Shown piece after piece: positions 1 to 52,177 of a stretch of 52,177 nt of DNA. This DNA comes from a virus (Duplodnaviria; Heunggongvirae; Uroviricota; Caudoviricetes). A model generated the notes under the pieces. It ran no database searches, was not told the DNA's origin, and saw only the letters and a program-made list of their open reading frames with translations. Both the position numbers and the translations under genes were made by a program. The stretch's first letter is position 1; the number at the start of each line of letters is the position of its first letter. The stretch lies in the IMG/VR virus record IMGVR_UViG_2563366958_000018; one strand, given 5' to 3'.

Positions 1-3000
1 ATGCCTGTCGACTTTCTAACCTCTGACCAAAAACAGAATTACGGTTGTTATGCTGCAGAACCTAATGACGTGCAACTGGCGCGCTATTTTCATCTTGATG
101 AACGGGATCTGGCCTTCATTAACCAACGACGGGGCAAACATAATAGGCTGGGCATTGCGCTTCAGCTCACCACAGCCCGTTTTCTGGGAACATTTCTGAC
201 GGATTTAACTCAGGTTCTGCCTGGTGTTCAACATTTTGTCGCGGTACAGCTTAATATCCACCGTCCAGAAGTTCTCTCCCGCTATGCTGAACGGGACACT
301 ACCCTTAGAGAACATACTGCATTAATTAAGGAATATTACGGCTATCATGAATTTGGTGATTTTCCATGGTCTTTCCGCCTGAAGCGTCTGCTATATACCC
401 GGGCGTGGCTCAGTAATGAGCGACCGGGTCTGATGTTTGATTTTGCCACTGCATGGTTGCTTCAAAATAAGGTATTACTGCCCGGAGCAACCACACTAGT
501 ACGTCTCATCAGTGAAATTCGTGAAAGGGCAAATCAGCGGCTGTGGAAAAAGCTGGCCGCACTGCCGAACAAATGGCAGGCAGCTCAAGTGATGGAGCTT
601 CTGGTCATTCCGGAAGGTCAGCGTGTATCAGCACTGGAACAGTTGAAAAAAGGCCCTGTTACAGTCAGTGGACCTGCGTTTAATGAGGCGCTGGAACGAT
701 ATATCCGATTACGAAGTCTTGAGTTTTCCCGACTGAACTTTTCCGGTCTGCCTGCCATTCAACTGCGTAATCTGGCTCGTTATGCTGGCATGGCGTCGGT
801 AAAATATATCGCTCGAATGCCACAGCAGAGAAAGCTTGCTGCACTTACTGCATTCGTTAAAGCACAGGAAATAACGGCATTAGACGATGCCGTTGATGTG
901 CTTGATATGCTAATTCTGGACATTATCCGCGAAGCAAAGAAAACCGGGCAAAAAAAAAGACTCAGGACACTGAAAGATCTTGATCAGGCCGCATTGTTAC
1001 TGGCGCGGGCATGTGCATTGTTGCTGGATGATAATACAGATGTCCCAGATCTCAGGCAGGTTATCTTCAAGTGCGTACCCAAAAACAGACTGGCAGAATC
1101 TGTAAGCAAGGTTAATGAACTTGCTCGTCCACAGAACAATAATTTCCATGACGAAATGGTTGAGCAGTACGGTCGGGTTAAACGTTTTCTTCCGGCGGTG
1201 TTGCGGGACCTGCATTTCCGTGCGGCACCGGCAGGTGAACATGTACTGGCTGCGATTCATTATCTGGCAGAACTGAATGGTTCGAAAAAGCGCATCCTTG
1301 ATGATGCGCCTGAACATATTATCACCGGTCCCTGGAAACGCCTCGTATACGATGCGGAGGGACGGATACAGCGTGCAGGTTATTCACTATGTTTGCTGGA
1401 ACGCCTTCAGGATGCACTGCGCCGCCGGGACATCTGGCTTGAAAACAGTGATCGCTGGGGAGATCCTCGCGAGAAGTTGTTGCAAGGTGAAGAGTGGCAG
1501 ACTCAGCGTATTCCTGTCTGTCGGGCACTGGGACATCCTGTCGATGGACGTAAAGGTGTGCAACAACTGGCTATTCAGCTGGATGAGACCTGGAAAGCCG
1601 TGGCATCACGATTTGAAAAGAATGCGGAAGTTCATATCTGTAATGAAGGTAAATATCCATCCCTGACTATCAGTTGTCTGGAGAAACAGGAAGAGCCACC
1701 ATCATTGCTTCGTCTAAATAATCGGATCAAACAGCTACTCCCACCGGTAGATTTAACGGAACTGTTACTTGAGATAGATGCCCAGACAGGATTTACACAT
1801 GAGTTTGCGCATGTCAGTGAATCTGGTGCTCGAGCGCAAGATTTGCACATCAGTTTATGTGCGGTATTGATGGCTGAAGCCTGTAATATCGGACTGGAGC
1901 CGCTGATAAAGCACAATATACCAGCACTGACCCGCCATCGGCTCAGTTGGGTGAAACAGAATTACCTTCGTGCAGAAACGCTGGTCAGCGCCAATGCCCG
2001 CCTGGTTGATTTTCAGTCCACACTGGAGCTTGCTGGTCGTTGGGGAGGTGGAGAAGTGGCATCAGCTGACGGCATGCGCTTTGTCACACCAGTGAAGACC
2101 ATCAACTCAGGATCTAACAGAAAATATTTTGGTTCTGGACGAGGCATCACCTGGTATAACTTCGTATCTGATCAGTACTCTGGGTTCCATGGCATTGTGG
2201 TACCCGGTACATTACGGGATTCGATTTTTGTACTGGAAGGACTTCTTGAGCAGCAGACAGGGCTGAATCCAGTTGAAATCATGACAGACACTGCGGGTAG
2301 CAGCGATATTATTTTCGGTCTGTTCTGGCTACTGGGGTATCAGTTTTCCCCCCGGCTTGCCGATGCAGGTGAGGCGGTGTTCTGGCGGGTGAATAAATCG
2401 GCAAACTACGGAGTACTGGATAAGTTGGCCCGAGGATATGCAGATCTGTCAAAAGCGGAGAGTCAGTGGGATGAGATGATGCGAACCGCTGGTTCGCTGA
2501 AGTTGGGTACAATTCATGCGTCAGAACTCATTCGCTCTTTACTGAAAAGCTCGCGCCCATCAGGACTGGCACAGGCAATTATGGAAGTAGGGCGTGTAAA
2601 CAAAACGCTATATCTCCTCAATTATATTGATGATGAAGATTATCGTCGGCGGATCCTGACGCAGCTTAATCGAGGAGAAGGCCGCCACGCTGTGGCTCGT
2701 GCGATTTGTTACGGACAACGCGGAGAGATCAGAAAGCGTTATCGTGAAGGGCAGGAAGATCAACTGGGGGCGCTGGGCCTGGTTACTAATGCAGTGGTTC
2801 TGTGGAACACGCTCTATATGGAGGAAGCGTTGAGCTGGATGCGCCGTAATGGCGAAGAAATTATAGATGAAGATATCGCTCGGCTATCTCCCCTGATGCA
2901 CGGGCATATCAATATGTTGGGCCATTATACATTCACGTTGCCAGAGGATATTTTAAAAGGGGAACTGAGAGCTCTAAATTTAAATATAAACAACGAATTA

Positions 3001-3009
3001 TCTCCTTAA
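1..3009 (+). CDS. tnpA: Tn3-family transposase TnpA (Tn1000/gamma-delta-like), 1002 aa
   Basis: Full-length ORF starting MPVDFLT; conserved Tn3-family TnpA blocks (RPGLMFD, GGGEVASADGMRFV, LSPLMHGHINMLGHY); stop codon lies inside the terminal IR as in Tn3-family elements. Confidence 0.9.
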   Translation: MPVDFLTSDQKQNYGCYAAEPNDVQLARYFHLDERDLAFINQRRGKHNRLGIALQLTTARFLGTFLTDLTQVLPGVQHFVAVQLNIHRPEVLSRYAERDTTLREHTALIKEYYGYHEFGDFPWSFRLKRLLYTRAWLSNERPGLMFDFATAWLLQNKVLLPGATTLVRLISEIRERANQRLWKKLAALPNKWQAAQVMELLVIPEGQRVSALEQLKKGPVTVSGPAFNEALERYIRLRSLEFSRLNFSGLPAIQLRNLARYAGMASVKYIARMPQQRKLAALTAFVKAQEITALDDAVDVLDMLILDIIREAKKTGQKKRLRTLKDLDQAALLLARACALLLDDNTDVPDLRQVIFKCVPKNRLAESVSKVNELARPQNNNFHDEMVEQYGRVKRFLPAVLRDLHFRAAPAGEHVLAAIHYLAELNGSKKRILDDAPEHIITGPWKRLVYDAEGRIQRAGYSLCLLERLQDALRRRDIWLENSDRWGDPREKLLQGEEWQTQRIPVCRALGHPVDGRKGVQQLAIQLDETWKAVASRFEKNAEVHICNEGKYPSLTISCLEKQEEPPSLLRLNNRIKQLLPPVDLTELLLEIDAQTGFTHEFAHVSESGARAQDLHISLCAVLMAEACNIGLEPLIKHNIPALTRHRLSWVKQNYLRAETLVSANARLVDFQSTLELAGRWGGGEVASADGMRFVTPVKTINSGSNRKYFGSGRGITWYNFVSDQYSGFHGIVVPGTLRDSIFVLEGLLEQQTGLNPVEIMTDTAGSSDIIFGLFWLLGYQFSPRLADAGEAVFWRVNKSANYGVLDKLARGYADLSKAESQWDEMMRTAGSLKLGTIHASELIRSLLKSSRPSGLAQAIMEVGRVNKTLYLLNYIDDEDYRRRILTQLNRGEGRHAVARAICYGQRGEIRKRYREGQEDQLGALGLVTNAVVLWNTLYMEEALSWMRRNGEEIIDEDIARLSPLMHGHINMLGHYTFTLPEDILKGELRALNLNINNELSP

Positions 3010-3042
3010 CGTACGTTTTCGTTCCATTGGCCCTCAAACCCC
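3005..3042. repeat. 38-bp Tn3-family terminal inverted repeat (Tn1000-like)
   Basis: CTTAACGTACGTTTTCGTTCCATTGGCCCTCAAACCCC is the reverse complement of a GGGGTTTGAGGGCCAATGGAACGAAAACGTACGTTAAG-type IR; overlaps the tnpA stop. Confidence 0.85.
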
Positions 3043-3843
3043 GATCTTTACGAGGTTGACGTAATAGTCATGGGGTAAGTTTGTCATGGTGATAGTTCCC
3101 TTAAAGGTTAAGGATACTCACCACCGTCTGGTTCCAATCATTGGGTGGTGAGACGTACAGGGTTGGAACTACCGGTCACCATGGAATCCGGCGAGTCTTA
3201 CGACTCCCCCGCACGCCCCACCATAATTTGGGTGTAGCAGTGCTTTACGCATAAAAAAACCGCTAACGCGGTATGCGCCATGATGATTATCGGGGTTCCA
3301 ATCCCGACCGTAGATTTTGCTACGGCTCGGAAAGTGTCCACCAATGGCGCATTCATGTCAATACGGCGGGATTTTAACAGAGACAACCACATAGCGTGGG
3401 TTTATTGGTAGGCAGAAACAAAAAAACCGCCCTATTGAGGACGGTTCTTTCGTGCTGATCGGATTCGCGGTCCTTTCAGCATAACGTCGTTGTATAAACA
3501 ACCACGCAAGCACAAGCAGCAAGTTAATTTTACCCAAAAGGTAATAATAGTCCACTATTATGCTTCAAAAAATTGTGGTTCTTGTTGTGCCTGCAAACTC
3601 ACAGATTGTGGGTAGGTTACTGATTTTGTGAAAATAAACGAGTTTTTTCGTTTAATTTCTTTCCTATTACTAATCTTAAAATAATCGTAAAATACCTGTG
3701 GACCTTCCCGCCGATTCGCACCCGGGCACCGACTTTAGGGGAGGATTCTCCGTTGCCGTACATGCAAGCACAAGCAGCCGTGCTTGCTCTCGCGTTGTTT
3801 TCGTCGGTGGGGATGCCGTGAAACGGCCTGTAAGGGCCATACA

Positions 3844-3966
3844 ATGAAAAAATACTGTATGTGTATTTTTATCGTTGTTACTGGGGCTTTGTTTACGCCA
3901 CATGGGGAGGGTTGGAAGATTACTGATAACGCTCTGAATGTGACGATAAACATTAGCAGCAAGTAG
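3844..3966 (+). CDS. Small hydrophobic ORF (40 aa, MKKYCMCIFIVVTGALF...), hypothetical
   Basis: ATG with weak upstream purine tract; single hydrophobic segment; followed directly by a strong hairpin plus T-run. Confidence 0.2.
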   Translation: MKKYCMCIFIVVTGALFTPHGEGWKITDNALNVTINISSK

Positions 3967-3971
3967 CGATT

Positions 3972-3995
3972 AGGCCCCTTCGGGGGCCTTTTTTA
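3972..3995 (+). terminator. Rho-independent terminator
   Basis: AGGCCCC-TTCG-GGGGCCT stem followed by TTTTTT. Confidence 0.5.
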
Positions 3996-4004
3996 TGGTT
4001 GAAT

Positions 4005-4154
4005 TTAAACGCTGGAGCGCATTAAGCCTTTCAGAACTGCTTCACGTACCCATTCTGGCCTGGTGGATAGCAGGGCAAATAAGCGACCAGCTTTCAGCCG
4101 TTTGAGGTCGGTTAGACGAGTTTTCAGTAACCGTGTATATTGTTGCTCGGACAT
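4005..4154 (-). CDS. Small basic hypothetical protein (49 aa, MSEQQYTRLLKTRL...)
   Basis: ORF with strong RBS (AAGGGGA-N7-ATG) downstream of the partition operon. Confidence 0.35.
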   Translation of the reverse strand: MSEQQYTRLLKTRLTDLKRLKAGRLFALLSTRPEWVREAVLKGLMRSSV

Positions 4155-4216
4155 AACAAATTCCCCTTGTTGTGTCGCGACGGCCAACAGTTGGCGCTGG
4201 AGGCCGTCACCTTCTC

Positions 4217-4465
4217 TTACTTCTGGTTGTATTGAGCCTTGAGTAACTCAAAAGATTTTGTCAGCACTTCTTTCAATGACATATCCATTGAGCTGGCGAA
4301 CGTTTTGTACTCGCGTTTAAATTCAGGGTCGACGTTAAACGCCATTTGTGCCCCACCTGATTTGGTTCTGGTTGGCGTTTCAGTCGGGTCGAAAACCTGC
4401 GGTTGTTCGATCGATGGCGGTACGCCTTTGCTGTTCTTCTTTGGTGGTTTTGATGGTCCGGCCAT
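4217..4465 (-). CDS. ParG-like ribbon-helix-helix centromere-binding partition protein
   Basis: 82 aa, disordered basic N-terminus and C-terminal RHH-like segment (MAFNVDPEFKREYKTFASSMDMSLKEVLTKSFELLKAQ); directly downstream of ParA-like ATPase; strong RBS. Confidence 0.55.
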   Translation of the reverse strand: MAGPSKPPKKNSKGVPPSIEQPQVFDPTETPTRTKSGGAQMAFNVDPEFKREYKTFASSMDMSLKEVLTKSFELLKAQYNQK

Positions 4466-4477
4466 GTGTATCCCCTC

Positions 4478-4508
4478 TTATATAAATCTATAAAACTATA
4501 ATTATATA
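4478..4508. repeat. AT-rich palindromic repeat block (TATAAATCTATA / TATAATTATATA) between the two partition genes
   Basis: Same motif family as at 5187-5287 and five other intergenic sites. Confidence 0.5.
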
Positions 4509-5177
4509 TTACGCGGCAGTAGTCAGAGCCTCAAGCTGGTTGATAATCCCCTGAATAACGTCGTCTGCCTTTTTGCGTGGCGCAACGTATGAGCATTCAA
4601 TGAGGCTTAAGCCCTTATCCTGAGCTTTGCTCAGAGCTGGCTTGTGGGGAATGTACTTATCGACAACAAAGTATGGCGTATTAGCTAGGTACTCTTGGGC
4701 TTCAATGTAGTCGGCTTCGTTTTCAGCCGCGCCTGAGAACACCATGCAAATTTTCTTGATTGGCACACCCTTTTTAACGATGCCGTGAGCTGTGTTAACG
4801 GTGGTTTCTAGGTCATCGGTAGAGAATCTGGTTGGCAAAATAACCATATCCAGAAATTCAGAGAGCTTCGGTACTGATTCAGATGCGTAGGCACCGCCAT
4901 CGACGATAACCAGGTCGTATACTTCTGATTCGATGATTTTCTGGACTTGTGATGGCGTGCCGCACGGCTGCGCCGCGATTGCAGGTTCGATATTGTTGGC
5001 CATTCTGCGTTGTACCCAACGCGTTACCGTTCCGTTAAGCACATCCATATCGATCAGGCATACATTCCAGCCGGCCTTTGCATAAGCAACTGCTAAAGCA
5101 CGGGCAATTGTTGATTTGGTTACGCCGCCTTTTCCGTTGAAAATACCTACAGAGATAGTCATTTGTCGAGACTCCAT
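4509..5177 (-). CDS. ParA/ParF-type partition ATPase (small ParA)
   Basis: Deviant Walker A (GIFNGKGGVTKST) near N-terminus, 222 aa; alternative start at 5162 (MTISV...) has the better RBS. Confidence 0.85.
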   Translation of the reverse strand: MESRQMTISVGIFNGKGGVTKSTIARALAVAYAKAGWNVCLIDMDVLNGTVTRWVQRRMANNIEPAIAAQPCGTPSQVQKIIESEVYDLVIVDGGAYASESVPKLSEFLDMVILPTRFSTDDLETTVNTAHGIVKKGVPIKKICMVFSGAAENEADYIEAQEYLANTPYFVVDKYIPHKPALSKAQDKGLSLIECSYVAPRKKADDVIQGIINQLEALTTAA

Positions 5178-5186
5178 GTGTTTGGT

Positions 5187-5287
5187 TATATAATTCTATA
5201 AATCTATATTTATAGAACGAGGTAAGCATAACCAACTTTTTGGCGGATGAAAAGCGTTTTATATAATTATATAAATCTATAATCATG
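5187..5287. promoter_or_regulatory. Candidate centromere/operator region upstream of the partition operon (two AT-rich palindromic repeat blocks)
   Basis: TTATATAATTCTATAAATCTATATTTATAGA (5187-5217) and TTTATATAATTATATAAATCTATAATCATG (5258-5287) immediately upstream of the ParA start. Confidence 0.45.
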
Positions 5288-5312
5288 TAAGCGGGCGTTA
5301 GCCCGCTTTCAG

Positions 5313-5687
5313 TCAGAGGTCAGCTATCGTTGATATCAGTTGATTTGCTAGCTGTCGCTGTTTACGTGAGAGGGTGAGAGCAGCTTCTGAGCGGTCGCTA
5401 AGAGGGGTGTTTTCATCAAGAATCATGAGGCATACAGAAATAATAGCCCTGTTATATGCCATCAATGGCTGGCACAGCTTCGATATCGCTGGCACATCGT
5501 ATTGTAAGGCCGTTTTGAGGCAGACTTTTTGTTCTGATGCCAGATGAAGGATAGATTCTATCCAGTCGATATCTTTCTCATTATCAATGATTTGGCATAA
5601 CATACACTCAATCGCTATGTTCAACGCTTGGATTTCGATTCCAGCAGTGATCAGAGTTTCGTTTTTATTGGCTGTATGTAATTCCAT
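5313..5687 (-). CDS. Hypothetical protein (124 aa), first leftward gene downstream of cI
   Basis: ORF preceded by a CI-type operator palindrome at 5723-5737. Confidence 0.45.
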   Translation of the reverse strand: MELHTANKNETLITAGIEIQALNIAIECMLCQIIDNEKDIDWIESILHLASEQKVCLKTALQYDVPAISKLCQPLMAYNRAIISVCLMILDENTPLSDRSEAALTLSRKQRQLANQLISTIADL

Positions 5688-5722
5688 GCGTAGCCTCTTT
5701 TATACTTTTACATGTTGTCAAA

Positions 5723-5737
5723 ACCACAAAATGTGGT
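5723..5737. promoter_or_regulatory. CI-type operator (ACCAC-AAAAT-GTGGT), OL-like
   Basis: Perfect 5+5 inverted repeat matching the operator consensus seen in the cI-cro intergenic region. Confidence 0.5.
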
Positions 5738-5779
5738 TTTTTTGAGCGTAGAAATGCACGGCTTTCGCCGTGCTGTGTA

Positions 5780-6436
5780 TCATAACCAGTTGACAACACT
5801 AACTACGCGGCCAAGAACTTTATAACGCTTAAATTCCTCGTTATTCAGATGCTTAGTGTTCATTTCAGCATCCCTTTCGGTTGACAGCATAACAGCATTG
5901 TCACCCGGTATGACTCTACAGTGCCTCAAAACAACCAGGCCATTTCTGTCTTCAAGGGCATAGATCCCCTCATGAATCTCTGTATCGTCTGTATTAATCA
6001 GGACTTGGGAGCCTGGGGATATTGTTGGTGACATTAACTCATCGTTGCTCTGGAGAACTGACAGAGACGATGGGTTGATGTTCTTGCTTCGTAGAATCTC
6101 CTGTTCTATCGCCAGCACTGGCTTTTCTCCGGCGTGCGATGCTATGTCATTTTTTATAGCTACAAGCCCAGGAATAACAGGAGCGTTAGTATTCTGGGGT
6201 GGGAACGGGTTATCTGTTAAGCACGCGATATAAGGCGCTGATGCTTTCAGGGCGTGCGCGATTTTCTTGATGGCAGGTATAGATGGTTGTCTTAATCCGG
6301 CCTCATAGTTCTGCAAGGTGCTTAAGCCTATTCCAGTGACTTGCTGGAGATCTCCGGCAGTCATGCCGGATTGTTTCCGTAGAGTCTGAATGCGCAGACC
6401 TATTTCTTTCTTGATGTTCTCGTCGTTGCTTTTCAT
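5780..6436 (-). CDS. cI: CI-like phage repressor (XRE-type HTH + S24/LexA-like autopeptidase domain)
   Basis: N-terminal HTH (LRKQSGMTAGDLQQVTGIGLSTLQNYEAG), Ala-Gly cleavage-site candidate, Ser (LMSPT) and Lys (KVLGRV) of the S24 dyad; divergent from the Cro-like gene. Confidence 0.85.
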   Translation of the reverse strand: MKSNDENIKKEIGLRIQTLRKQSGMTAGDLQQVTGIGLSTLQNYEAGLRQPSIPAIKKIAHALKASAPYIACLTDNPFPPQNTNAPVIPGLVAIKNDIASHAGEKPVLAIEQEILRSKNINPSSLSVLQSNDELMSPTISPGSQVLINTDDTEIHEGIYALEDRNGLVVLRHCRVIPGDNAVMLSTERDAEMNTKHLNNEEFKRYKVLGRVVSVVNWL

Positions 6437-6473
6437 GTCTCATCAATCGTGAATGGTGGGTTATTTATACATT

Positions 6474-6591
6474 ACCACATTTAGTGGTTTTCACATGGTA
6501 AGACGAGAGGTGGACCACAAATAGAAGGTTATTTTTTGTTTCGCCCATTGAAAAACTCACGATATGTGGTTTTAATACCACATATCGTGGT
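6474..6591. promoter_or_regulatory. OR-like operator region: three ACCAC-N5-GTGGT palindromes between cI and the Cro-like gene
   Basis: ACCACATTTAGTGGT (6474-6488), CTCACGATATGTGGT (6556-6570), ACCACATATCGTGGT (6577-6591). Confidence 0.6.
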
Positions 6592-6610
6592 TTTAACTGG
6601 AGTTCGTTAA

Positions 6611-7105
6611 ATGACCTTTCAGGAGTGGGTTGACGAAAATGGAGGCCAAATTGGTGTTGCCAGAAAGTTTGGCTTTACGTCATCACTGATTGGTGCCTGG
6701 TATCGCTTCGAGAGATTCCCTCGTGCGGATAACCTGACGCTGCTGGTGGCGTATTCGGAAGGCCGGATTAACGTCCAGCAATGGGCGGCAGATTTTGCCG
6801 AACGTCAGCGCCAGCGTAGCGATGGCACATCGGTTCGGCAGAACAAGATCAAAGGGAATCTCCCTGTTAACTGCTTATCAAGGCTGAAAGCGGTTTTCTC
6901 TGAGCTGGGGATGCCTGCGGAGCGTTGCAATCTACGCGGTCCGCGATTCATTGCTCGCTGGAAACACTCACATGTAACCGTTTCAGAGGTTCGTGATGCG
7001 ATTACCGTGCTGGAGCTTAAGAATAAAGATTCCAGCGATATCGAGCTGATTCATAAGGAGATTAGCAACGCCCGGCGTTCAGCACTTGGGAGGCTTGAGG
7101 AATGA
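6611..7105 (+). CDS. Cro-like HTH regulator (N-terminal HTH, 164 aa)
   Basis: Divergent from cI across the operator region; HTH-like segment GGQIGVARKFGFTSSLIGAWY. Confidence 0.5.
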   Translation: MTFQEWVDENGGQIGVARKFGFTSSLIGAWYRFERFPRADNLTLLVAYSEGRINVQQWAADFAERQRQRSDGTSVRQNKIKGNLPVNCLSRLKAVFSELGMPAERCNLRGPRFIARWKHSHVTVSEVRDAITVLELKNKDSSDIELIHKEISNARRSALGRLEE

Positions 7106-7617
7106 TGATTCTGGCCTTCTTTGGTGATAATCACCAGATTCAATCGCAGGTGGTGCACTACCTTGATCAAACGATTAAAGGATTTGTTATCGATCATATT
7201 GATAACGATAGCAAACGTCTATCTGTAGAGCAGAAAATTGGAGGTGTGCAGCGACTGGTTGCCAGCCGTAACAGACGTGACACCGTAACAGTCGTTACGG
7301 GGATTACGGAGGTCATGGAGTACCAGATGTTGCTGCATCGTGGAGCTGTTTTCTGCGTTCTTCCTGGTATTCTGCCAGCAATTCTTGCTCGTGGTTTTGT
7401 CCCTATTGATGAGTCGTTCTTATATGTAACCCCAAGCCGTTCCCTTCTGGATACGGAGGCGAAGCGTCGCATTTATATGATGCCGGACGAGGCATTTTCT
7501 GAATGTTACCGCCGTGAAATGAGGTTGGGTAAACGAGAAGTGTCTGTTGTTCGTGATGGCAGGTTTTTAAGAAGCCGCACGGTGAAAAGCACCAGAAATG
7601 ACGGGGGCCATCAATGA
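7102..7617 (+). CDS. Hypothetical early protein (171 aa)
   Basis: Overlapping start/stop with neighbours, same operon as the Cro-like gene. Confidence 0.45.
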   Translation: MMILAFFGDNHQIQSQVVHYLDQTIKGFVIDHIDNDSKRLSVEQKIGGVQRLVASRNRRDTVTVVTGITEVMEYQMLLHRGAVFCVLPGILPAILARGFVPIDESFLYVTPSRSLLDTEAKRRIYMMPDEAFSECYRREMRLGKREVSVVRDGRFLRSRTVKSTRNDGGHQ

Positions 7618-7847
7618 GTAGTTATGTTCGCGGTGCTGCGATGCATTGCCAGAATCCCCAATTCTGGCGCTTTCTGGTCAGTAAAACAGGGAAGAACGTT
7701 TCAAACAGTTCTGAGGCCTCTGTGATTCTGCGTGAGTTTTGCGGGATCTCATCCCGTAAAGAGCTGGCAAAGAACTACGCGGCCAGAAGCATGTATGTCC
7801 AGTTAATCAACGAGTTCAACCTCTTTATCAATGGTAAGGGGCGCTGA
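7614..7847 (+). CDS. Hypothetical early protein (77 aa)
   Basis: Translationally coupled ORF. Confidence 0.4.
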   Translation: MSSYVRGAAMHCQNPQFWRFLVSKTGKNVSNSSEASVILREFCGISSRKELAKNYAARSMYVQLINEFNLFINGKGR

Positions 7848-8251
7848 TGAACGGACGTACACCAACGAAGAAAGAGAAACTTTATATACAAGCGGTGCTC
7901 ACTCACGTGGGTTGCATAGCTTGCATTATTGATGGCCGTGAAATTGAGAATCCAGAGCTGTGGACGGAGCTACATCACGATCCTGATTACGGCAGCGTTG
8001 ATGAGAATTGCCACTTCCATAGCTTTGGGTTGTGCGCACCACATCATCGCGGTGTTGTGCCTGGTGGTGGGCGTGTGCCTCCGCATATTGCCGTTCGTCA
8101 CCCTCCCCTGAGTAATTGTGCTCGCTTTGTTGAGCGTTATGGCACAGATGAATTTTTGTGTGCGCAGACGTGGGAGCTGTTGCCGCAGTCAGTTAAAGAC
8201 GAAATTGGGTTTGATCTTAGTCTTGGTGAAGTACCAGGGGATACCAAATGA
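7847..8251 (+). CDS. HNH-motif zinc-binding nuclease-like protein (nin-region type)
   Basis: CxxC ... HH ... N ... H ... C ... HH arrangement (CIAC, ELHHDPD, DENCHFH, CAPHH). Confidence 0.4.
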   Translation: MNGRTPTKKEKLYIQAVLTHVGCIACIIDGREIENPELWTELHHDPDYGSVDENCHFHSFGLCAPHHRGVVPGGGRVPPHIAVRHPPLSNCARFVERYGTDEFLCAQTWELLPQSVKDEIGFDLSLGEVPGDTK

Positions 8252-8580
8252 GATATACCGGCTTTCGCAAACCAGCGACAAGGAAAAGCAAATACGGCAA
8301 TAAAAAAACGGTTGTCGATGATATCGCTTTTGATAGCAAAAAAGAGGCTGATTACTACTGCGAACTGAAGCTACTGAGAAAAGCTGGCCGCGTTGTGACG
8401 TTTCTTATGCAGGTGCCTTTTCATCTGCCAGGTGGTGTCGTTTATAAACTTGATTTCATGGTGTTTTATGACGATGGGACGATTGATTGTGTCGACACTA
8501 AAGGTGTGCGAACAGACGTCTACATCATGAAGAAAAAGCAGGTAGAGGCGCTTTATCCCGTCACGATACGGGAGATCTGA
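8248..8580 (+). CDS. DUF1064-like phage protein
   Basis: YGNKKT and FDSKKEA motifs typical of DUF1064 as recalled. Confidence 0.55.
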   Translation: MRYTGFRKPATRKSKYGNKKTVVDDIAFDSKKEADYYCELKLLRKAGRVVTFLMQVPFHLPGGVVYKLDFMVFYDDGTIDCVDTKGVRTDVYIMKKKQVEALYPVTIREI

Positions 8581-8583
8581 ACA

Positions 8584-8961
8584 GTGAGACGCGATCTGGA
8601 TAGCTTGTTTGAGCTATGGGCGCTGTGGGTGCGCAATGGCTGCAACGCCCGTAGCGGTTTCGCGTCGATGTTAGAAATGATGATGGTTACGCGCTGCCAG
8701 TTTACCGGAGGGGGCGGCGCACCAAATGACTCACTGGAAACCAGTATAGAGGGAGCGGTGACGGCCCTCACGGTAGTTGATGAGACTGCGGCGCTGGTTG
8801 TCCGAATTGAATACGGGGCGTGGGAGATTCGGGGCCTCGACATAAATGCACCGCATATTGATAAAGCCCACGCCCTTTCTCTTAGCCTCAGACAGTATCG
8901 CCGGAAGCTGGCAAAAGCCAGGGCGTATGTTGTCGACTATTTGAAAAAGCGAAGAGAGTAA
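8584..8961 (+). CDS. Possible Q-like late antiterminator (short Q family)
   Basis: 125 aa, GTG start, position after nin-like genes and N-terminal pattern (LFELWALW) reminiscent of short Q proteins; weak. Confidence 0.35.
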   Translation: MRRDLDSLFELWALWVRNGCNARSGFASMLEMMMVTRCQFTGGGGAPNDSLETSIEGAVTALTVVDETAALVVRIEYGAWEIRGLDINAPHIDKAHALSLSLRQYRRKLAKARAYVVDYLKKRRE

Positions 8962-9010
8962 AAGTGTCATTTTGAGCTGTTTTGATGGTGTGTAGACATC
9001 GGGAACATCG

Positions 9011-9130
9011 AAAATCTATAAATATATAATTATAGATTTATATAAAAAGTGCTTTACAGGTGGGAAAAAATTTCCTATGGTTATACCCGAAACCGAGCGA
9101 TACCCGCCCTGGTTAAACCGGAGAAATCTG
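9011..9130 (+). promoter_or_regulatory. Conserved promoter/operator/leader cassette, copy 1
   Basis: AT-rich palindrome + TTTACA-N17-TATGGT + 50-nt leader ending GGAG-N8-ATG; near-identical copies at 15968-16081 and 48828-48941. Confidence 0.5.
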
Positions 9131-10198
9131 ATGAATAAACAAGTAATTATTTCTGACTGGATCAACAACCCTAACAGCCTGTTAAGCACTGATACTGGCT
9201 ACCTATTACGCCATGTTAATGGTCGTATGGTCAAAAGCGATGAGCACGAAACCTTTTTCTTTGTTGAAGACGATGGGCGTATCTATGAGGATGGTTACTC
9301 TTATGAAGCCCAAACTGGTTGTATCCCTGCGGAGCTGGTGGATGTAACAGAAGATCTGCGCAAAGCATGGCTTGAACAGCAGCAGCGCGGAGATGATTAC
9401 GTAAACACCTATCAGGAACGCCAGAACGCGCGTCTTGCCCGATATATTGCTCGTGCAGAAAAAGCCAGAAAAGAAGGTGCGGTAGCGCATAAGCGAGCGC
9501 ATGACCTGTTGGATGTGATCCCGTTAGGCCAGCCGATTTTAGTTGACCATTATAGCGCGAAAGGCCATCGCCGCCGTTTGTCTAAAGCTGATGCGTTATT
9601 CAGAAAAGCGTTTGTTGAATGCGAAAGTAAAGCATCACACTACGAGAGCAAAGCCGCAGGTGTTGGTCGTAATGGAATTTCGTCTGATGATCCTGATGCG
9701 CTATTTAAGTTGCTTCGTAAGCTGCAAGGCTGCATGAAGTCACACGTCAAAATGAAGGCCGCAAATAAGGCCATTCGCAAATACAAAAAAGACCAAATAC
9801 AGCAGCTTTCTGCATTAATCGATCTCAGGTTTACAGAAAGCGAAGCCAAAGAGTTACTGGCCGGAGATTTCTGTGGGCGCATCGGATTCCCTTCATACGC
9901 ACTGAGCAACAATAACGCCGAAATCAAACGACTACAGAGCCGTATTAAGGAGCTTGAATCGGTCAAGTCTGTAACAGGAGCACAGCGCGAAGAATACGAC
10001 GGCTTTTCTATGGAGATAGATCCAGAGGATAACCGCATCCTGTTTTATTTCCCTGGCAAACCAGAGGCAAACATTCGTTCGCTGCTTAAATCACGCGCCT
10101 TTAAGTGGAGTCCAACCCGTAATGCATGGGTTCGCAAGATTACTCCAAACGCCCTGGCTGATGCCCGATATCTGAAAGAATCGCTATTGAAAGCCTGA
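9131..10198 (+). CDS. DUF3560-like protein (355 aa)
   Basis: GQPILVDHYSAKGHRRR and C-terminal FKWSP...NAWVR segments resemble DUF3560; start taken at the ATG after the conserved leader rather than the in-frame ATG at 9077. Confidence 0.55.
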   Translation: MNKQVIISDWINNPNSLLSTDTGYLLRHVNGRMVKSDEHETFFFVEDDGRIYEDGYSYEAQTGCIPAELVDVTEDLRKAWLEQQQRGDDYVNTYQERQNARLARYIARAEKARKEGAVAHKRAHDLLDVIPLGQPILVDHYSAKGHRRRLSKADALFRKAFVECESKASHYESKAAGVGRNGISSDDPDALFKLLRKLQGCMKSHVKMKAANKAIRKYKKDQIQQLSALIDLRFTESEAKELLAGDFCGRIGFPSYALSNNNAEIKRLQSRIKELESVKSVTGAQREEYDGFSMEIDPEDNRILFYFPGKPEANIRSLLKSRAFKWSPTRNAWVRKITPNALADARYLKESLLKA

Positions 10199-10275
10199 CA
10201 GTAAGCCTACGGCGGGATGTCTCCCGCCGTATATAGAATTATATATTTATATAAATGTATAAGGACGCCTCGACA

Positions 10276-10557
10276 ATGAAACGCAAAATTATTAACCCCC
10301 AAGATGTGATTAATTTCCTGACCGATCACCCATGTTCAAAAGTGGACGTAATCGCGGAGCACATTGGTGTGTCGCAGAACTCTATGCGTTGCAGACTGAG
10401 AAGCATGGTTGCCGAAGGACAGATAACAACCAGGAAAATAAATGGTTGCCTGTACTACTCCGCTAAACCGGAATTGCCATTTGGCATGAATCCTAACTCC
10501 ATGTTGTTTAACACCTTATTAGCCAAAGTTAAGCCGTTGAGAGGGGCTGTGGCATGA
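10276..10557 (+). CDS. Winged-helix DNA-binding protein (93 aa)
   Basis: HTH-like segment VDVIAEHIGVSQNSMRCRLRSMVAEGQI; RBS AAGGA upstream. Confidence 0.45.
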   Translation: MKRKIINPQDVINFLTDHPCSKVDVIAEHIGVSQNSMRCRLRSMVAEGQITTRKINGCLYYSAKPELPFGMNPNSMLFNTLLAKVKPLRGAVA

Positions 10558-14707: not shown

Positions 14708-14831
14708 TACCGCCTGTGATTGGGTAAAGCCCATCTACCTGACTGATCACGACATCGATGTTATGGACCGCCAGACAAAGAAAGATATTCTGGCTCATAA
14801 CAGGGCATGGGAAATCAACTGCCGAAAGTAA
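14622..14831 (+). CDS. o-spanin (Rz1-like lipoprotein), overlapping the i-spanin 3' end in another frame
   Basis: Signal peptide with lipobox LIAS-C, Pro-rich mature part. Confidence 0.6.
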   Translation: MYSRVLTIWLMTMLIASCGSRGSVPVVVDTACDWVKPIYLTDHDIDVMDRQTKKDILAHNRAWEINCRK

Positions 14832-15000
14832 TATATATTTCTATAATTATATAAATATATAGTTACAACATTCTATGCGCTTTTCTCATGGGCGCACGCA
14901 TCAACCATGTTTGTCTGATATGCCGCCGCGCCCAAAAATCCTGAATTTATTGGCTGGGATTTTCGTGCGCGGCGCCACACCAGACAAACAAATCAAATAT

Positions 15001-15076
15001 GGCCCCTTAGCTTAGTGGTTAGAGCAGGCGACTCATAATCGCACGGTCATCGGTTCAAATCCGGTAGGGGCCACCA
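15001..15076 (+). tRNA. tRNA with CAU anticodon, most similar to tRNA-Ile2 (ileX-type, lysidine-dependent AUA decoder); could also be a Met tRNA
   Basis: Cloverleaf folds: acceptor GGCCCCT/AGGGGCC, anticodon loop CUCAUAA, T-loop TTCAAAT, 3' CCA encoded. Confidence 0.85.
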
Positions 15077-15383: not shown

Positions 15384-15971
15384 ATGGAGGCAATTGCATT
15401 GTTTAATCTGATTTATGCAGATCCCCCCTGGGAATACAAAGATAAGTGTAAGGATGGGAATCGTGGAGCTGGTTTTAAGTATCCAACGATGAAAGCTGAG
15501 GATATTGCTCGTATTCCTGTCTGGCAGCTTGCTAATCCTGAATCGTGTTTGTTGGCCATGTGGTGGGTTCCGACTCAGCCAGAAGAAGCGTTGCTGGTGG
15601 TGAAAGCATGGGGATTCAGGCTTATGACCATGAAGGGCTTCACATGGAACAAATGTGGTAGCCGACAACCAGATAAGCTGGTGATGGGGATGGGGCATAT
15701 GACTCGTGCAAACAGTGAAGATTGCTTGTTTGCGGTAAAAGGCAAATTGCCGACCCGCCTTGATGCGGGGATCATTCAGTCGTTTACATCGCCTCGTCTG
15801 GAGCATTCTCGGAAGCCTGATGTGGTTCGTGACAAGCTGGTAAGGCTGTTAGGTGATGTTCCTCGTATTGAGCTGTTTGCTCGCGGTGATTTACCTGATG
15901 GTTGGCATGGCTGGGGCAACCAGTGCAATGGAGGTATCCAGTTGCATGATGCTCTCTGGCAAGTGGCATAG
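15384..15971 (+). CDS. MT-A70-family N6-adenine DNA methyltransferase (orphan)
   Basis: Catalytic DPPW motif (IYADPPWEY), 195 aa; no adjacent restriction endonuclease. Confidence 0.8.
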   Translation: MEAIALFNLIYADPPWEYKDKCKDGNRGAGFKYPTMKAEDIARIPVWQLANPESCLLAMWWVPTQPEEALLVVKAWGFRLMTMKGFTWNKCGSRQPDKLVMGMGHMTRANSEDCLFAVKGKLPTRLDAGIIQSFTSPRLEHSRKPDVVRDKLVRLLGDVPRIELFARGDLPDGWHGWGNQCNGGIQLHDALWQVA

Positions 15972-16081
15972 AATTATATAATTATAGATTTATATAAAAA
16001 GTGCTTTACAGGTGGGAAAAAATTTCCTATGGTTATACCCGAAACCGAGCGATACCCGCCCTGGTTAAACCGGAGAAATCT
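15968..16081 (+). promoter_or_regulatory. Conserved promoter/operator/leader cassette, copy 2
   Basis: Identical to copy 1 over ~100 bp. Confidence 0.5.
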
Positions 16082-16352
16082 GATGAAAGTACAAGACCGT
16101 GAAGTAGTAAAAAACCTCCTGCAATACCTGACCTCAAAAAACCTGACGGGCAGCGTTGAGTTCCGTGAAGCGTTAAAACATTTCAACGTCACTACGGTTT
16201 ATCGTTGGGAAAACAAACATTCTGAAAGACCGTATGTGGTGGATGTTTTTGCGCCTGATATTGAGTGCGGTTTTGAGCGTCATTCGTTCAAGGAGAAACA
16301 TTCTGCTGATTTTTTTTGTGAGGTTGTATGTGCGGCAGGAGATGATGAGTGA
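16082..16352 (+). CDS. Hypothetical protein (90 aa)
   Basis: First ORF after cassette copy 2. Confidence 0.45.
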
Positions 16353-17954: not shown

Positions 17955-18578
17955 ATGACAAAACATCTTAATGTGGTTTCTTTACCACTTTCTGTGTTGA
18001 TTGGTTATGAAAAGAACGCTCGCACACACTCCGTGGAGCAGGTAGATCAGATTATTGCCAGCATACAGGAGTACGGATGGACTAATCCGATCCTGATAGA
18101 CGAGAACAACGTTGTAATTGCTGGTCATGGTCGAATTGCTGCGGCCACTCAGTTGGGGATGGATGATGTTCCCTGCATTGTTCTGGCTGGGCTAACGGAG
18201 AATCAGAAGAAGGCATATCGTCTGGCCGACAACCGTATTCCGCTGAATGCTGGTTGGGATGAAGAGTTGTTAAGCGCGGAGCTTGCAGATCTTGCGGCCG
18301 ATGATTTTGCTCTGGACTCAATTGGTTTTACTCAGCGCGAACTGGATAACTTATTGAGTGCGGCGGTCTACGATGACACAGAGGGTATGGATATCCCATT
18401 TGAGAAGGATGAGGCCAAATCAGGCGTAAAAGTTCAGTACCTGTCATTTGGAGGTCATAAAATCCCGGCAACGGATGAGGAAGCGGATCGTTTTGACTGC
18501 GCGGTGTCTCGTTATGTTGATGATAATGGCAGCTATATCGGATTTGTATCCGCATTGCTGGCTGGGGAGGTGTGCTGA
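17955..18578 (+). CDS. ParB/Srx-like nuclease-domain protein (207 aa)
   Basis: N-terminal ParB-type fold with GHGR arginine motif (VIAGHGRIAAA); paralogue of 21244-21834. Confidence 0.7.
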   Translation: MTKHLNVVSLPLSVLIGYEKNARTHSVEQVDQIIASIQEYGWTNPILIDENNVVIAGHGRIAAATQLGMDDVPCIVLAGLTENQKKAYRLADNRIPLNAGWDEELLSAELADLAADDFALDSIGFTQRELDNLLSAAVYDDTEGMDIPFEKDEAKSGVKVQYLSFGGHKIPATDEEADRFDCAVSRYVDDNGSYIGFVSALLAGEVC

Positions 18579-43451: not shown

Positions 43452-43489
43452 AGGGGTCTGACGCTCAGTGGAACGAAAACTCACGTTAA
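43452..43489. repeat. Tn3 38-bp terminal inverted repeat (bla-proximal end)
   Basis: GGGGTCTGACGCTCAGTGGAACGAAAACTCACGTTAAG. Confidence 0.9.
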
Positions 43490-43599
43490 GGGATTTTGGT
43501 CATGAGATTATCAAAAAGGATCTTCACCTAGATCCTTTTAAATTAAAAATGAAGTTTTAAATCAATCTAAAGTATATATGAGTAAACTTGGTCTGACAG

Positions 43600-44472
<873 letters not shown>

Positions 44473-44642
44473 TCAATATTATTGAAGCATTTATCAGGGT
44501 TATTGTCTCATGAGCGGATACATATTTGAATGTATTTAGAAAAATAAACAAATAGGGGTTCCGCGCACATTTCCCCGAAAAGTGCCACCTGACGTCTAAG
44601 AAACCATTATTATCATGACATTAACCTATAAAAATAGGCGTA

Positions 44643-45222
<580 letters not shown>

Positions 45223-45637
45223 AAGATAATCATGTGACCAATTATTGTAATAATTTTAATGGTATGTTTCTACTGGCTATCCAGCGTGTCTGATATCCAG
45301 TAACAAATCGTCAACACGGGTGCAATCAAATAGTGAGTGTTAAGACTGACCACTTATTACCAGGTATGAGTGGCCAGCATTAAATCAGAACAGCCCTTTA
45401 ACTGAACTGGCCGCGCTGTTAAGGGATGATGTCACCTTATCTTTGAAGCCGGACAGCATATTGCTGAACGATGAGTTTACCGCAGGTTTCTGGCTGGGAA
45501 TCATTGACTGGAGTTAGGCCAGTAGTATGATGCTCGCAAAACGAGATCCAATTTAGATCCTTTTACTGGTGGATTATCGTTCGATCAGTGAGAGACTTCG
45601 TGCATGACCGAAAGTGTTGTGGTAGAGTTCTCTTAAA

Positions 45638-45652
45638 ACCACGTAACGTGGT
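45638..45652. promoter_or_regulatory. CI-type operator palindrome (ACCAC-GTAAC-GTGGT) in the repA promoter region
   Basis: Perfect match to the ACCAC-N5-GTGGT consensus (extended AACCAC/GTGGTT), about 40 bp upstream of the repA leader, overlapping a TATGAT -10 candidate. Confidence 0.4.
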
Positions 45653-45688
45653 TATGATTGTGGGTGTCTGGTTGGAAAGTGACCAGAT

Positions 45689-48820: not shown

Positions 48821-48827
48821 CGCTCAT

Positions 48828-48941
48828 AGAATTATATAATTATAGATTTATATAAAAAGTGCTTTACAGGTGGGAAAAAATTTCCTAAGGTTATACCCGA
48901 AACCGAGCGATACCCGCCCTGGTTAAACCGGAGATAACCCG
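48828..48941 (+). promoter_or_regulatory. Conserved promoter/operator/leader cassette, copy 3
   Basis: Identical to copies 1 and 2 except a T-to-A change (TAAGG vs TATGG) and a divergent last 10 nt. Confidence 0.5.
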
Positions 48942-49322
48942 ATGAGCATGATTAAAATCCGCAAAAACGCTTTCCTTAAAATTCAAACTATCCTGGCTGG
49001 TTCTGTTGGCGTGATTTGCCGTTCTTCTTCAAGCCGCATCGATGACGGCTACGATGATGAGTATCGTTTGTCCTCGTGCGATGAGGCTTTAACCTGGCTG
49101 AAGGAGAATCAGGAACGTGCCCAGGTATATCTGGAAACAGAGAACGGCAATCAGATGCTCCGTATTAGCGGTCGTTATGGATTTGAAACCACATTCATGG
49201 CCTATTTTAATCAGGCTTACTTTGACAAGGAGTTGGCCTGGTACACTGATCGCATGAGCAAAAGCGAGCCAGCCCCGATTACACCGCCGAACGATAAACC
49301 ATTTTTATTCCTCGTTAAGTAA
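48942..49322 (+). CDS. Hypothetical protein (126 aa)
   Basis: First ORF after cassette copy 3. Confidence 0.45.
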   Translation: MSMIKIRKNAFLKIQTILAGSVGVICRSSSSRIDDGYDDEYRLSSCDEALTWLKENQERAQVYLETENGNQMLRISGRYGFETTFMAYFNQAYFDKELAWYTDRMSKSEPAPITPPNDKPFLFLVK

Positions 49323-51034: not shown

Positions 51035-52177
51035 TTATGGTCTGCTTTTCTGTGCCAGCTTATCAGCACATGTTTTTATCAGATCCTGTAGTGTCTTGGC
51101 TGGCAGGTTTGCATCCAGTACGCTGAGTATGCTGTTGTGATCAGCTTGGTCGACTACTTTGCCTGTCGGTGGTAGTAGCTTGAGCTGAGGATTCAGGTTT
51201 TCGTCAAAGCTGATAAGTGCTCTGGCGTTTCTGAGCAGATCAAGAAGTAAGGCTGATATCACATTTTCCTGAGTCATTGCTGGCAGATTTAGCGCCGCTT
51301 TGGTTTTCCCTGTTGCCTTGTCAAACGCCTTGATTAGTTCCTTCCTGTAGTTCGGTTCCGTTAATAGCCGATTATGCTCTGTTGCCGCGCGGATAATCGT
51401 TTTTTCCTGGTACAGTCGTTTAGCCAGATCACGCTCGTACTGTGTTTTTAACACGCTGCTGATAGCGTTAAAGGCTTCAATGTAGGCCAGCTTGATATCT
51501 TTCACGCTTGGACCGTCGATGCTCTCCATGAGCAAGGTAAATCCGTCTTTTGTCATGCGATAGATTGTTATTTCGCGGTCGCTTCCTTCCAGCGGTCGTT
51601 GCTCTTTAAAGAAGTGACGCGCCGCAGCCGTGCGAGGAATGCGTAGCGCATCGATGGCCATAACGATGGAATTGTTTGTGGTGCTGAATGCTTGGGCAAC
51701 ATCGGCTGAGGTTGTGAGTGGCTCGTTGTTGCACACTTTAATGTAAAACATCGGTTTGGCGTTGAGCGTATCGACAACCTCACGAGCATTGTTTGGCGAG
51801 ACGGTTACGGTCGCGGCCGTTTGCGCGTTCTGGCTGAAATAGCAGTCTTCCAGCCGTTCGAATACATCCCACGCCTGATCGGTTTCGAGCATTTTGGCGT
51901 GACGTGCAGCCCCGCGTTCTGTCCAGAGAATGAGGGAGCGGGCATTTTTACCAACTAACCCGATTGTTTCAGGTCTGTTCTTGAACTCGCGTAATTCGTT
52001 TTTTTCAATTTTAAAGTAATGCTTTCCGGCTATGAATCGCGTCGTGTTGTTCAGAAAGTTATCAGAAATGTTTTTGATTTTTGTTCCGTATAACTGCGCC
52101 AGAAGTTCAGTTGTAATAACGGGGATCTGGTTATGCAAGATAGGCTGTAGGGTGTTAACGGTCGGAAGCGTTTTCAT
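51035..52177 (-). CDS. Phage antirepressor (AntA/ORF6N-type N-terminal domain, Rha-like central region)
   Basis: 380 aa; N-terminal ITTELLAQLYGTKIKNISDNFLNN...RFIAGKHYF; start codon is the last three bases of the window so the true start may lie beyond it. Confidence 0.7.
   Translation of the reverse strand: MKTLPTVNTLQPILHNQIPVITTELLAQLYGTKIKNISDNFLNNTTRFIAGKHYFKIEKNELREFKNRPETIGLVGKNARSLILWTERGAARHAKMLETDQAWDVFERLEDCYFSQNAQTAATVTVSPNNAREVVDTLNAKPMFYIKVCNNEPLTTSADVAQAFSTTNNSIVMAIDALRIPRTAAARHFFKEQRPLEGSDREITIYRMTKDGFTLLMESIDGPSVKDIKLAYIEAFNAISSVLKTQYERDLAKRLYQEKTIIRAATEHNRLLTEPNYRKELIKAFDKATGKTKAALNLPAMTQENVISALLLDLLRNARALISFDENLNPQLKLLPPTGKVVDQADHNSILSVLDANLPAKTLQDLIKTCADKLAQKSRP

Follow-up and report, generated by a model that had tools for sequence, protein, structure and literature searches.

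The window analysed here, a 52,177-nt stretch of DNA (IMG/VR record IMGVR_UViG_2563366958_000018), is an Escherichia coli phage-plasmid of the myovirus type (~47 kb) that bears Tn3-family and blaTEM pieces. Its partition (par) locus encodes a small ParA ATPase and an 82-residue ParG-like protein, and A/T-rich repeats lie between and upstream of the two genes. A preliminary description, made from the letters of the window, noted variants of these repeats at five further sites and offered two explanations: either the ParG-like protein, as a ribbon-helix-helix (RHH) protein, reads dispersed sites, or the repeats are just UP-element-like AT tracts. Which protein, if any, reads the repeats, and what would it do away from the par locus? 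Our answer is that the ParG-like protein, acting as the centromere-binding protein of a type Ib partition system, probably binds all of the arrays, autoregulates par, and modulates five other promoters.

Phased arrays and the partition locus

The window contains eight arrays, each composed of three or four contiguous 8-bp units, with 31 units in total (Table 1). The commonest unit, TTATATAA, accounts for 9 of the 31 and gives the consensus. The main variants are ATCTATAA/TTATAGAT and TTCTATAA/TTATAGAA. The preliminary description had called the motif palindromic, and this is true of the commonest unit; the term does not extend to the oriented variants that are mixed with it in the arrays. All eight sites that it had listed exist within a few bases of where it had placed them, and its statement that they are always intergenic and mostly at operon starts was borne out (8 of 8 intergenic). 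Three arrays are in the parA-parG locus, three are upstream of the -35 element of a triplicated promoter, one is at a ribosome-binding site, and the remaining one is located ahead of a tRNA region. The plasmid/early (non-structural) arc holds every array, and the ~27-kb morphogenesis arc holds none.

The motif is far more frequent in the window than expected by chance, the check that the preliminary description had proposed. With up to two mismatches, TATAAATCTATA has 46 matches against 5.7 expected. The pattern TATA-N4-TATA-N4-TATA, with up to one mismatch, has 26 matches against 0.15 expected, all within the eight sites. The two-unit pattern WTMTATAW x2, with up to two mismatches, has 50 matches against 1.95 expected; 48 of these fall within the arrays, leaving two strays (33876 and 37441), as many as chance would give. 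Clusters of this kind number eight, against 0.05 expected. The units are strictly phased, the base autocorrelation within the arrays being 0.74 at lag 8 and 0.72 at lag 16, and at most 0.58 at other lags. Relative to sequences simulated from the arrays' own dinucleotide content, four TATA words in phase are ~11-fold enriched (15 against 1.33, with a maximum of 8 in 300 simulations). The arrays are 92% A+T, and yet they occupy only 8 of the 30 segments of the window with an A+T content of at least 84%; the other 22 carry no array. No Rfam family overlaps any array in an Rfam scan.

The par locus is transcribed from the minus strand in the order upstream gene's terminator, array 3, promoter, array 2, ribosome-binding site, parA, array 1, ribosome-binding site, parG. 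ParA is an ATPase of the ~200-220-residue size class without an N-terminal helix-turn-helix (HTH) domain, and its residues 10-17 form a deviant Walker A motif (GKGGVTKS). It matches the Pfam families CbiA, ParA, and MipZ, is annotated as 'ParA family protein' in relatives, matches the NCBIfam model ParA_partition with E=4e-22 (below the model's cutoff), and has ParF (4dzz) among its seven PDB matches (E=3e-4). Its true start is likely at 5162 rather than at an upstream ATG at 5177. Plus-strand promoter-like matches at 5166-5194 and 5240-5267 were rejected, as they only reuse TATAAT words inside the arrays. An unusually well-conserved translation-initiation region, GGAG(T/C)CTCGACAA(A)TG or AAGGACG(C/T)CTCGACAATG, is common to parA and the MarR-like gene downstream of array 5 (5162-5177 and 10262-10278 in the window), and it is kept in distant family members (L005 and L043-L050; L numbers denote the compared elements).

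The parG-like reading frame starts 43 bp downstream of parA. Searched alone, its 82-residue product has no match in Pfam (E<=0.01), NCBIfam, or the PDB (phmmer), it matches only an unannotated family among the PHROGs, and the relatives found by a word-indexed homologue search are all >=80% identical to it. When 17 homologues are combined into a profile, however, it matches an RHH protein (2kel, E=0.007) and TP228 ParG (1p94, E=0.024) in the PDB, with the strand and both helices covered, and hhalign against the RHH region of ParG gives 90% probability. The homologues match the Pfam families RHH_10, Antitox_RHH, and ParG; the last of these, PF09274, is matched by only 2 of the 17 (best E=1e-4). 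In an AlphaFold2 monomer model built from a shallow alignment, residues 1-40 are disordered and helices span residues 47-59 and 62-79. In the sequence, the predicted ribbon is Q40-M-A-F-N-V45, followed by the predicted helices PEFKREYKTFASS and LKEVLTKSFELLKAQ. On account of the profile, hhalign, Pfam-family, and AlphaFold2 results we treat the protein as ParG-like: it is most likely an RHH centromere-binding protein, related to ParG at the level of fold or superfamily, and not a member of PF09274. The anatomy of the locus matches that of a type Ib system, with a small ParA, an adjacent small RHH-like gene with a flexible basic tail, and repeat arrays by the operon.

The three module arrays belong to a 127-nt unit of promoter and 5' untranslated region (UTR) that is present three times (9017-9143, 15969-16095, and 48827-48953; 96% and 87% identical). 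In each copy, the array is at about -74 to -43 of a promoter of the type TTTACA-N17-TATGGT, followed by a conserved leader that ends in ...AAACCGGAGA and then by the start codon. Copy 1 drives a DUF3560/primase-like gene (9131-10198; Pfam and PHROG matches), and copy 2 drives the gene at 16086-16352 and the genes after it. No supported consensus RNA structure was found in the module 5' UTR (-0.7 kcal/mol, no covariation). The spacer between -35 and -10 contains a dyad, which is GGGAAAAAATTTCC in the window, TAGGA..TCCTA in Serratia, and TTAGGAC..GTCCTAA in L044-type elements, and which might serve as operator for a further regulator of these promoters. The gene downstream of array 5 (10276-10557) has a PHROG MarR-family match. 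Between array 6 and the tRNA gene (15001-15073) lies a long imperfect hairpin (14908-14990) with 34-nt arms that are 85% complementary; it might be a processing signal, an attenuator, or an origin-like structure.

Table 1 Arrays, partition genes, and array-linked promoters in the window
Feature	Coordinates	Strand	Description
Array 1	4478-4509	-	Four units filling the parA-parG gap; ends 2-3 nt before the parG Shine-Dalgarno sequence
Array 2	5186-5217	-	Four units spanning ~+2 to +33 of the predicted parA promoter; the parA ribosome-binding site follows closely
Array 3	5259-5282	-	Three units (~-41 to -64) next to the parA -35 on its upstream side; the upstream gene's terminator comes before them
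Array 4	9014-9045	+	Four units, -74 to -43 relative to module promoter copy 1
Array 5	10231-10262	+	Four units; a terminator hairpin precedes them and the ribosome-binding site AAGGACGCCTCGACAATG of a MarR-like gene follows
Array 6	14831-14862	+	Four units abutting a -35-like TTACAA; then a hairpin, a tRNA gene, and an MT-A70 methyltransferase gene
Array 7	15966-15997	+	~3.5-4 units; module promoter copy 2 (16005-16033) follows
Array 8	48824-48855	+	~3.5-4 units upstream of module promoter copy 3
parG-like gene	4217-4465	-	82 aa; Lys/Pro-rich flexible N-tail (~1-39), C-terminal RHH
parA	4509-5162	-	217-aa ParF-like type Ib partition ATPase
Inferred parA promoter	5225-5253	-	-35 TTTTCA 5253-5248, 17-nt spacer, -10 TATGCT 5230-5225
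Module promoter copy 1	9053-9081	+	TTTACA-N17-TATGGT, conserved 5' UTR (promoter scan, triplication)
Module promoter copy 3	-35 48863-48868; -10 48886-48891	+	-10 TAAGGT; drives the gene at 48942-49322

Array class and ParG ribbon in related elements

The window was compared with 13 related elements from PLSDB and IMG/VR, namely a Salmonella plasmid, a Serratia plasmid, and 11 IMG/VR loci sampled over 13-20 kb each. Relatives with a diverged ParG were gathered by tblastn and pattern scans with the 82-residue protein. The layout of terminator, array, promoter, array, ribosome-binding site, parA, and parG recurs in most relatives. The position of array 2 also holds arrays in L043-L052, Salmonella, and Serratia, and a -35/-10-like pair is present at the same place between two arrays in most relatives examined. 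Each IMG/VR locus carries about two to eight arrays of its own class, par-linked and dispersed, mostly at promoters, and the dispersed arrays that were read immediately precede the -35 in promoters of this one family. The linker between array and -35, AAAGnnC, is conserved in divergent relatives.

The plasmid of Salmonella Weltevreden encodes a ParG that is 89-90% identical to that of the window, with the ribbon QMSFNV, and has all eight TATA-type arrays at orthologous places. Arrays and promoters are nearly identical in the two elements, whereas the flanks are diverged or unalignable, a phylogenetic footprint. Array 1 is kept, array 4 is conserved together with its promoter next to an unalignable upstream flank, array 5 is identical at 31 of 32 positions although its flanks have diverged, and array 6 is conserved together with GTTACAACATTC.

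Plasmid p2 of Serratia marcescens is syntenic with the window, and its ParG is 46-50% identical, with the ribbon AMNFNV in place of QMAFNV. A scan of p2 found no TATA-N4 array anywhere. Instead, p2 has eight arrays of ATCTTTAA/TTAAATAA units, par-linked and dispersed (0.13 expected by chance for the phased-box pattern), and 7 of the 8 are at positions equivalent to those in the window: in the parA-parG gap, where TTAAAGAT-type units take the place of array 1, on both sides of the parA promoter, upstream of the -35 of its own triplicated module, and next to the ribosome-binding site AAGGACGTCTCGACAATG, where the site orthologous to array 5 has ATCTTTAA units. The Serratia module promoter is TTGCAG-N17-TAATAT, and its leader is the same as that of the window. 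A further match in p2, at 26636 by repA, was discarded, since it looks like AT-rich origin-region DNA.

Across the 14 elements, five classes of array can be distinguished, and the arrays of any one element, par-linked or dispersed, are all of a single class. Class 1 arrays (WTMTATAW) go with the ribbon QM[AS]FNV in the window and Salmonella (L002, L042). Class 2 arrays (WTMTTTAW) go with [AL]MNFNV or PLNFNV in Serratia (L005), L043, L049, and L052. Class 3 arrays (GATATA/TATATC-type) accompany the ribbon QLLL[RQ]L in L044, L045, L046, L048, and L050. Class 4 arrays, of the CAGAAA type (CTGTATTT/CTGGCTTT), accompany GLNFKV in L054, where the units contain G/C at both par and promoter sites. Class 5 arrays (TTTAWACA) are found with PMHFNV in L047. 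Classes 1, 2, and 4 exclude one another in cross-scans.

The ribbon residues that differ between classes are at positions 40, 42, and 44. Because they alternate with the hydrophobic residues M/F/V, they are expected, by the general rule for RHH proteins, to face the DNA major groove. It is known that the ribbon determines specificity in RHH proteins and is portable (PMC3413123). L046 is the sole class 3 element with glutamine at position 44 (KQLLLQLD), and it has AAAAATATA/TATATTTTT in 8 of 8 arrays; the class 3 elements with arginine at this position (L044, L045, L048, and L050) have AAAGATATA/TATATCTTT in the same place. This difference possibly reflects an arginine-guanine contact seen in natural variation.

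By these comparisons, par-linked and dispersed arrays have changed in concert at least four times, while promoter and leader stayed recognisable. The concerted change, with array class following the ParG ribbon, points to a shared, co-evolving, trans-acting reader. The proposal of the preliminary description that the ParG-like RHH protein reads the dispersed sites thus gains comparative support from the switching of class with the ribbon and from the conservation in Salmonella.

Other phage-plasmids, and also non-phage contexts, encode distant ParG-like proteins whose ribbon is LNFKV (L004, L013, L008, and L011). L004 is Yersinia pestis pTP33, with its ParG-like locus at 8524-9371. L013, a distant non-phage ParA/ParG locus, has 8-bp-phased ACGAAA-type repeats upstream of parA.

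Candidate readers of the arrays

If ParG is the reader, one RHH dimer would occupy each 8-bp unit, and dimers would load side by side and cooperatively on arrays of three to four units. The three par arrays, which bracket the parA promoter, would act as centromere and autoregulatory operator, and the same protein would recognise the five dispersed arrays of identical type. Four of these are positioned at the upstream edge of a -35 (three module copies and one -35-like TTACAA) and one at a ribosome-binding site. Because the position relative to the -35 or the ribosome-binding site is fixed, we favour transcriptional control at the five dispersed sites. ParG would most likely throttle transcription there, either by blocking the zone of the UP element and the C-terminal domain of the RNA polymerase alpha subunit or by contacting RNA polymerase. 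Non-structural operons of the phage-plasmid would thereby be tied to the level of ParG, and the dispersed arrays may also serve as accessory centromeres. The arrays are observed, as are their register, positions, conservation, and concerted class switching; ParG binding, the sign of the regulation, and centromere activity are inferred.

A more ambitious version is possible but doubtful. In this little-characterised family of Enterobacterales myovirus phage-plasmids, ParG would then be a master, copy-number-coupled regulator of the non-structural half of the genome that also builds a multi-site centromere, so that segregation and the plasmid/phage lifestyle are wired together. Operons for replication-associated, methylase/tRNA, and regulatory functions would take their expression level from it, and the ribbon classes would constitute a one-residue/one-base-pair code, with A/S42 matching a central TA, N42 matching AA/TT, and R44 versus Q44 matching G versus A.

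Several observations weigh against ParG as the reader. The similarity to TP228 ParG is weak (no Pfam match for the window protein, profile E=0.024). The AlphaFold2 monomer is of low confidence (predicted local distance difference test, pLDDT, 65) and has no strand, and a Foldseek search of this weak model against the PDB gave no fold match and was uninformative. An RHH fold needs a dimer, and in the ParG-like protein both strand and dimer are predictions. The parA promoter resembles the consensus weakly (8/12), below the threshold of the promoter scanner, and a convincing -10 was not found after array 6, which makes the promoter there tentative. Three of the five dispersed sites (9014, 15966, and 48824) are paralogous copies of one module and not independent. 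The patterns of classes 1 and 3 partly cross-match, both carrying TATA at 8-bp phase. A/T-rich arrays in the UP-element zone could act as UP elements when unoccupied. Finally, the covariation shows a shared trans-acting factor without naming it, a point that serves the case for another regulator.

Could the arrays be mere A/T-rich UP-element-like tracts or curved DNA, bound by no dedicated protein and resembling par only in composition? Such tracts would be at home where five of the eight arrays lie, at about -40 to -75 of a -35 or -35-like hexamer, in the UP-element zone, and the A+T content of the arrays fits as well. They would not have a strict 8-bp register that is enriched even over the arrays' own dinucleotide model, and 22 other AT-rich segments carry no array. 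Moreover, three arrays are not upstream of a -35 (one is downstream of the parA transcription start and two are at ribosome-binding sites), and the units of relatives differ at the same places, in L054 being of the G/C-containing CAGAAA type, in agreement with each element's own par arrays. We consider this explanation highly improbable, and the alternative raised in the preliminary description fails on the register, the class switching, and the G/C-containing units of L054. A different element-encoded regulator might instead control par and the other promoters through the arrays, with ParG binding elsewhere or only to a subset. The element does encode several uncharacterised small proteins and HTH proteins nearby, and the separate spacer dyad in each module promoter makes multi-factor control plausible. 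However, type Ib systems place the repeats of their centromere-binding protein by parA, where no other repeat family is present in the window; L013 likewise has its phased repeats upstream of parA; and array class goes with the ParG residues predicted to face the DNA, down to the R/Q versus G/A difference between L044-type elements and L046. A regulator other than ParG is thus distinctly unlikely.

ParG might also bind all arrays and use the dispersed ones mainly as extra centromeres of a multi-site partition complex, with little regulation. Most arrays consist of four contiguous units, which is the minimum for full ParA-ATPase activation by the omega protein of plasmid pSM19035 (PMC9499535). 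The operator and centromere boxes of TP228 are interchangeable as centromeres (PMC3130281), and the centromere of the N15 prophage-plasmid is composed of four separate inverted-repeat (IR) sites (PMC7205306). A pure centromere, however, does not need the fixed position relative to the -35 or the ribosome-binding site that is kept in divergent relatives. All arrays lie in the non-structural arc, mostly at operon starts. We regard a predominantly centromeric role as rather unlikely, and the operator and centromere roles of the dispersed arrays are not mutually exclusive.

Other candidates for the array binder were set aside. The product of a 60-residue reading frame (p60, 4005-4187) is too conserved, class 1 and class 3 elements sharing 78% identity in it; the 124-residue product of the upstream gene (p124) lacks conservation in the family, being found only in E. 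coli and Salmonella. Nor were the arrays taken for RepA iterons: RepA is of the IncFII type, and there is no array at the origin region. The CI-like repressor was rejected, as its control region (6437-6610) has different palindromes and no arrays. This divergent CI/cro-like region contains palindromes of the CACGATATGTGG/CCACATATCGTGG type, with similar words at 5716-5743, 17956-17983, and 45631-45658; they could serve the CI-like repressor as operators and differ from the ParG-type arrays.

Known systems, the element, and its family

A partition protein that regulates several promoters is already established in omega, and KorB of RK2, a global repressor acting from 12 OB sites, is likewise established as both partition protein and multi-promoter regulator. 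Outside partition, the met-boxes of MetJ are tandem 8-bp units, two to five per operator, each taking one RHH dimer with cooperative neighbours; MetJ differs in being a chromosomal, co-repressor-dependent metabolic repressor with no partition role. The IR1-IR4 sites of N15 SopB resemble the arrays in that sites for a partition protein are scattered over a phage-plasmid replicon (PMC7205306). SopB and KorB differ from the system described here in that they are large type Ia HTH proteins of the ParB/SopB kind, which spread or slide from single palindromes and do not coat arrays as RHH proteins.

The nearest precedent for the proposed control is pSM19035, in which repeat arrays upstream of PcopS, Pdelta, and Pomega are operators and parS sites at once. 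There omega contacts RNA polymerase; when occupancy is low it can activate, and when occupancy is high it can repress (PMC4627068). The likeness to the window is extensive: omega is a small RHH centromere-binding protein with a flexible N-tail and a small Walker-type ParA partner, its contiguous short repeats are of mixed orientation and take about one dimer each (PMC4627068, PMC9499535), and its arrays are upstream of several promoters of one replicon. In contrast, omega reads 7-bp WATCACW units in arrays of 6-10 repeats, whereas the window has 8-bp TTATATAA-type units in arrays of three to four. The hosts also differ, a Firmicute plasmid versus an enterobacterial phage-plasmid, as do the regulated genes, and there is no detectable homology, Omega_Repress (PF07764) being matched by 1 of 17 family members with a non-significant E=0.21.

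The ParF/ParG/parH-OF system of TP228 likewise has a small ParA-like ATPase gene followed by that of an RHH protein with a mobile tail. Its boxes, direct and inverted, are spaced 8 bp from centre to centre with A/T-rich DNA between them, lie upstream of the operon, and each bind one ParG dimer, whether they belong to the operator or to the centromere (PMC3130281). The TP228 boxes are ACTC with 4-bp AT-rich spacers, whereas the units in the window are TATA-centred and contain no ACTC; TP228 has 20 boxes in one upstream block with no dispersed sites described (PMC3130281), and the window has an extra array between parA and parG.

Over positions 3900-9100, the window shares 99-100% identity with ~57 non-mobilizable plasmids of 46-52 kb, almost all of them from E. 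coli, and 98.9% with three Yersinia myophages (vB_YpM_39, 41, and 44) recovered on Yersinia pestis. PLSDB holds 65 records of these ~47-kb phage-plasmids (61 Escherichia, 3 Salmonella, and 1 Klebsiella), and relatives of the element are also present in GTDB genomes. The annotation of an identical plasmid, pMB9698_3, shows a phage-plasmid, with terminase, portal, sheath/tube, baseplate, and lysis genes as well as an IncFII-type RepA, a RelE/ParE-family toxin-antitoxin pair, a CI-like HTH-S24 repressor, and parA. The ten typed phage-plasmid groups do not include this element (PMC12977533).

Tn3-family pieces are present at two separate places in the window, 1-3042 and 43453-45016. The first contains a complete tnpA and a 38-bp IR at 3004-3042; the second contains an IR (43453-43491), blaTEM (43600-44460), a truncated resolvase gene (44643-44975), and then another IR-like sequence. 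The RepA-to-Rha segment sits between the two pieces, so either the transposon was rearranged or there were two insertion events. Serratia p2 independently carries blaTEM-1. Just downstream of the par locus, Rfam matches to C4 antisense RNA (P1/P7 immunity type), isrK, and ryfA are located at 3141-3228 (-), 3253-3326 (-), and 3698-3994 (+). These matches suggest a P1-like antisense immunity module beside the ORF6N-Rha protein (51035-52177).

Our literature search found no account of these arrays or of the partition system of this phage-plasmid family, and none of a ParG-like type Ib multi-promoter regulator in a Gram-negative phage-plasmid. The elements are common, especially in clinical E. coli, and can carry blaTEM, as do the window and Serratia p2. 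The family offers a natural specificity-swap series for RHH-DNA recognition. Regulation by ParG would extend the theme of the partition protein as a global regulator, known from omega and KorB, to type Ib systems of Gram-negative phage-plasmids. If the ParG-like protein does control the five further promoters, cloned arrays should destabilise the element through incompatibility and derepress it, which would provide a handle for curing it or for studying the phage-plasmid lysogeny switch, and plasmid maintenance and phage gene expression would be coupled through one small ParG-like protein.

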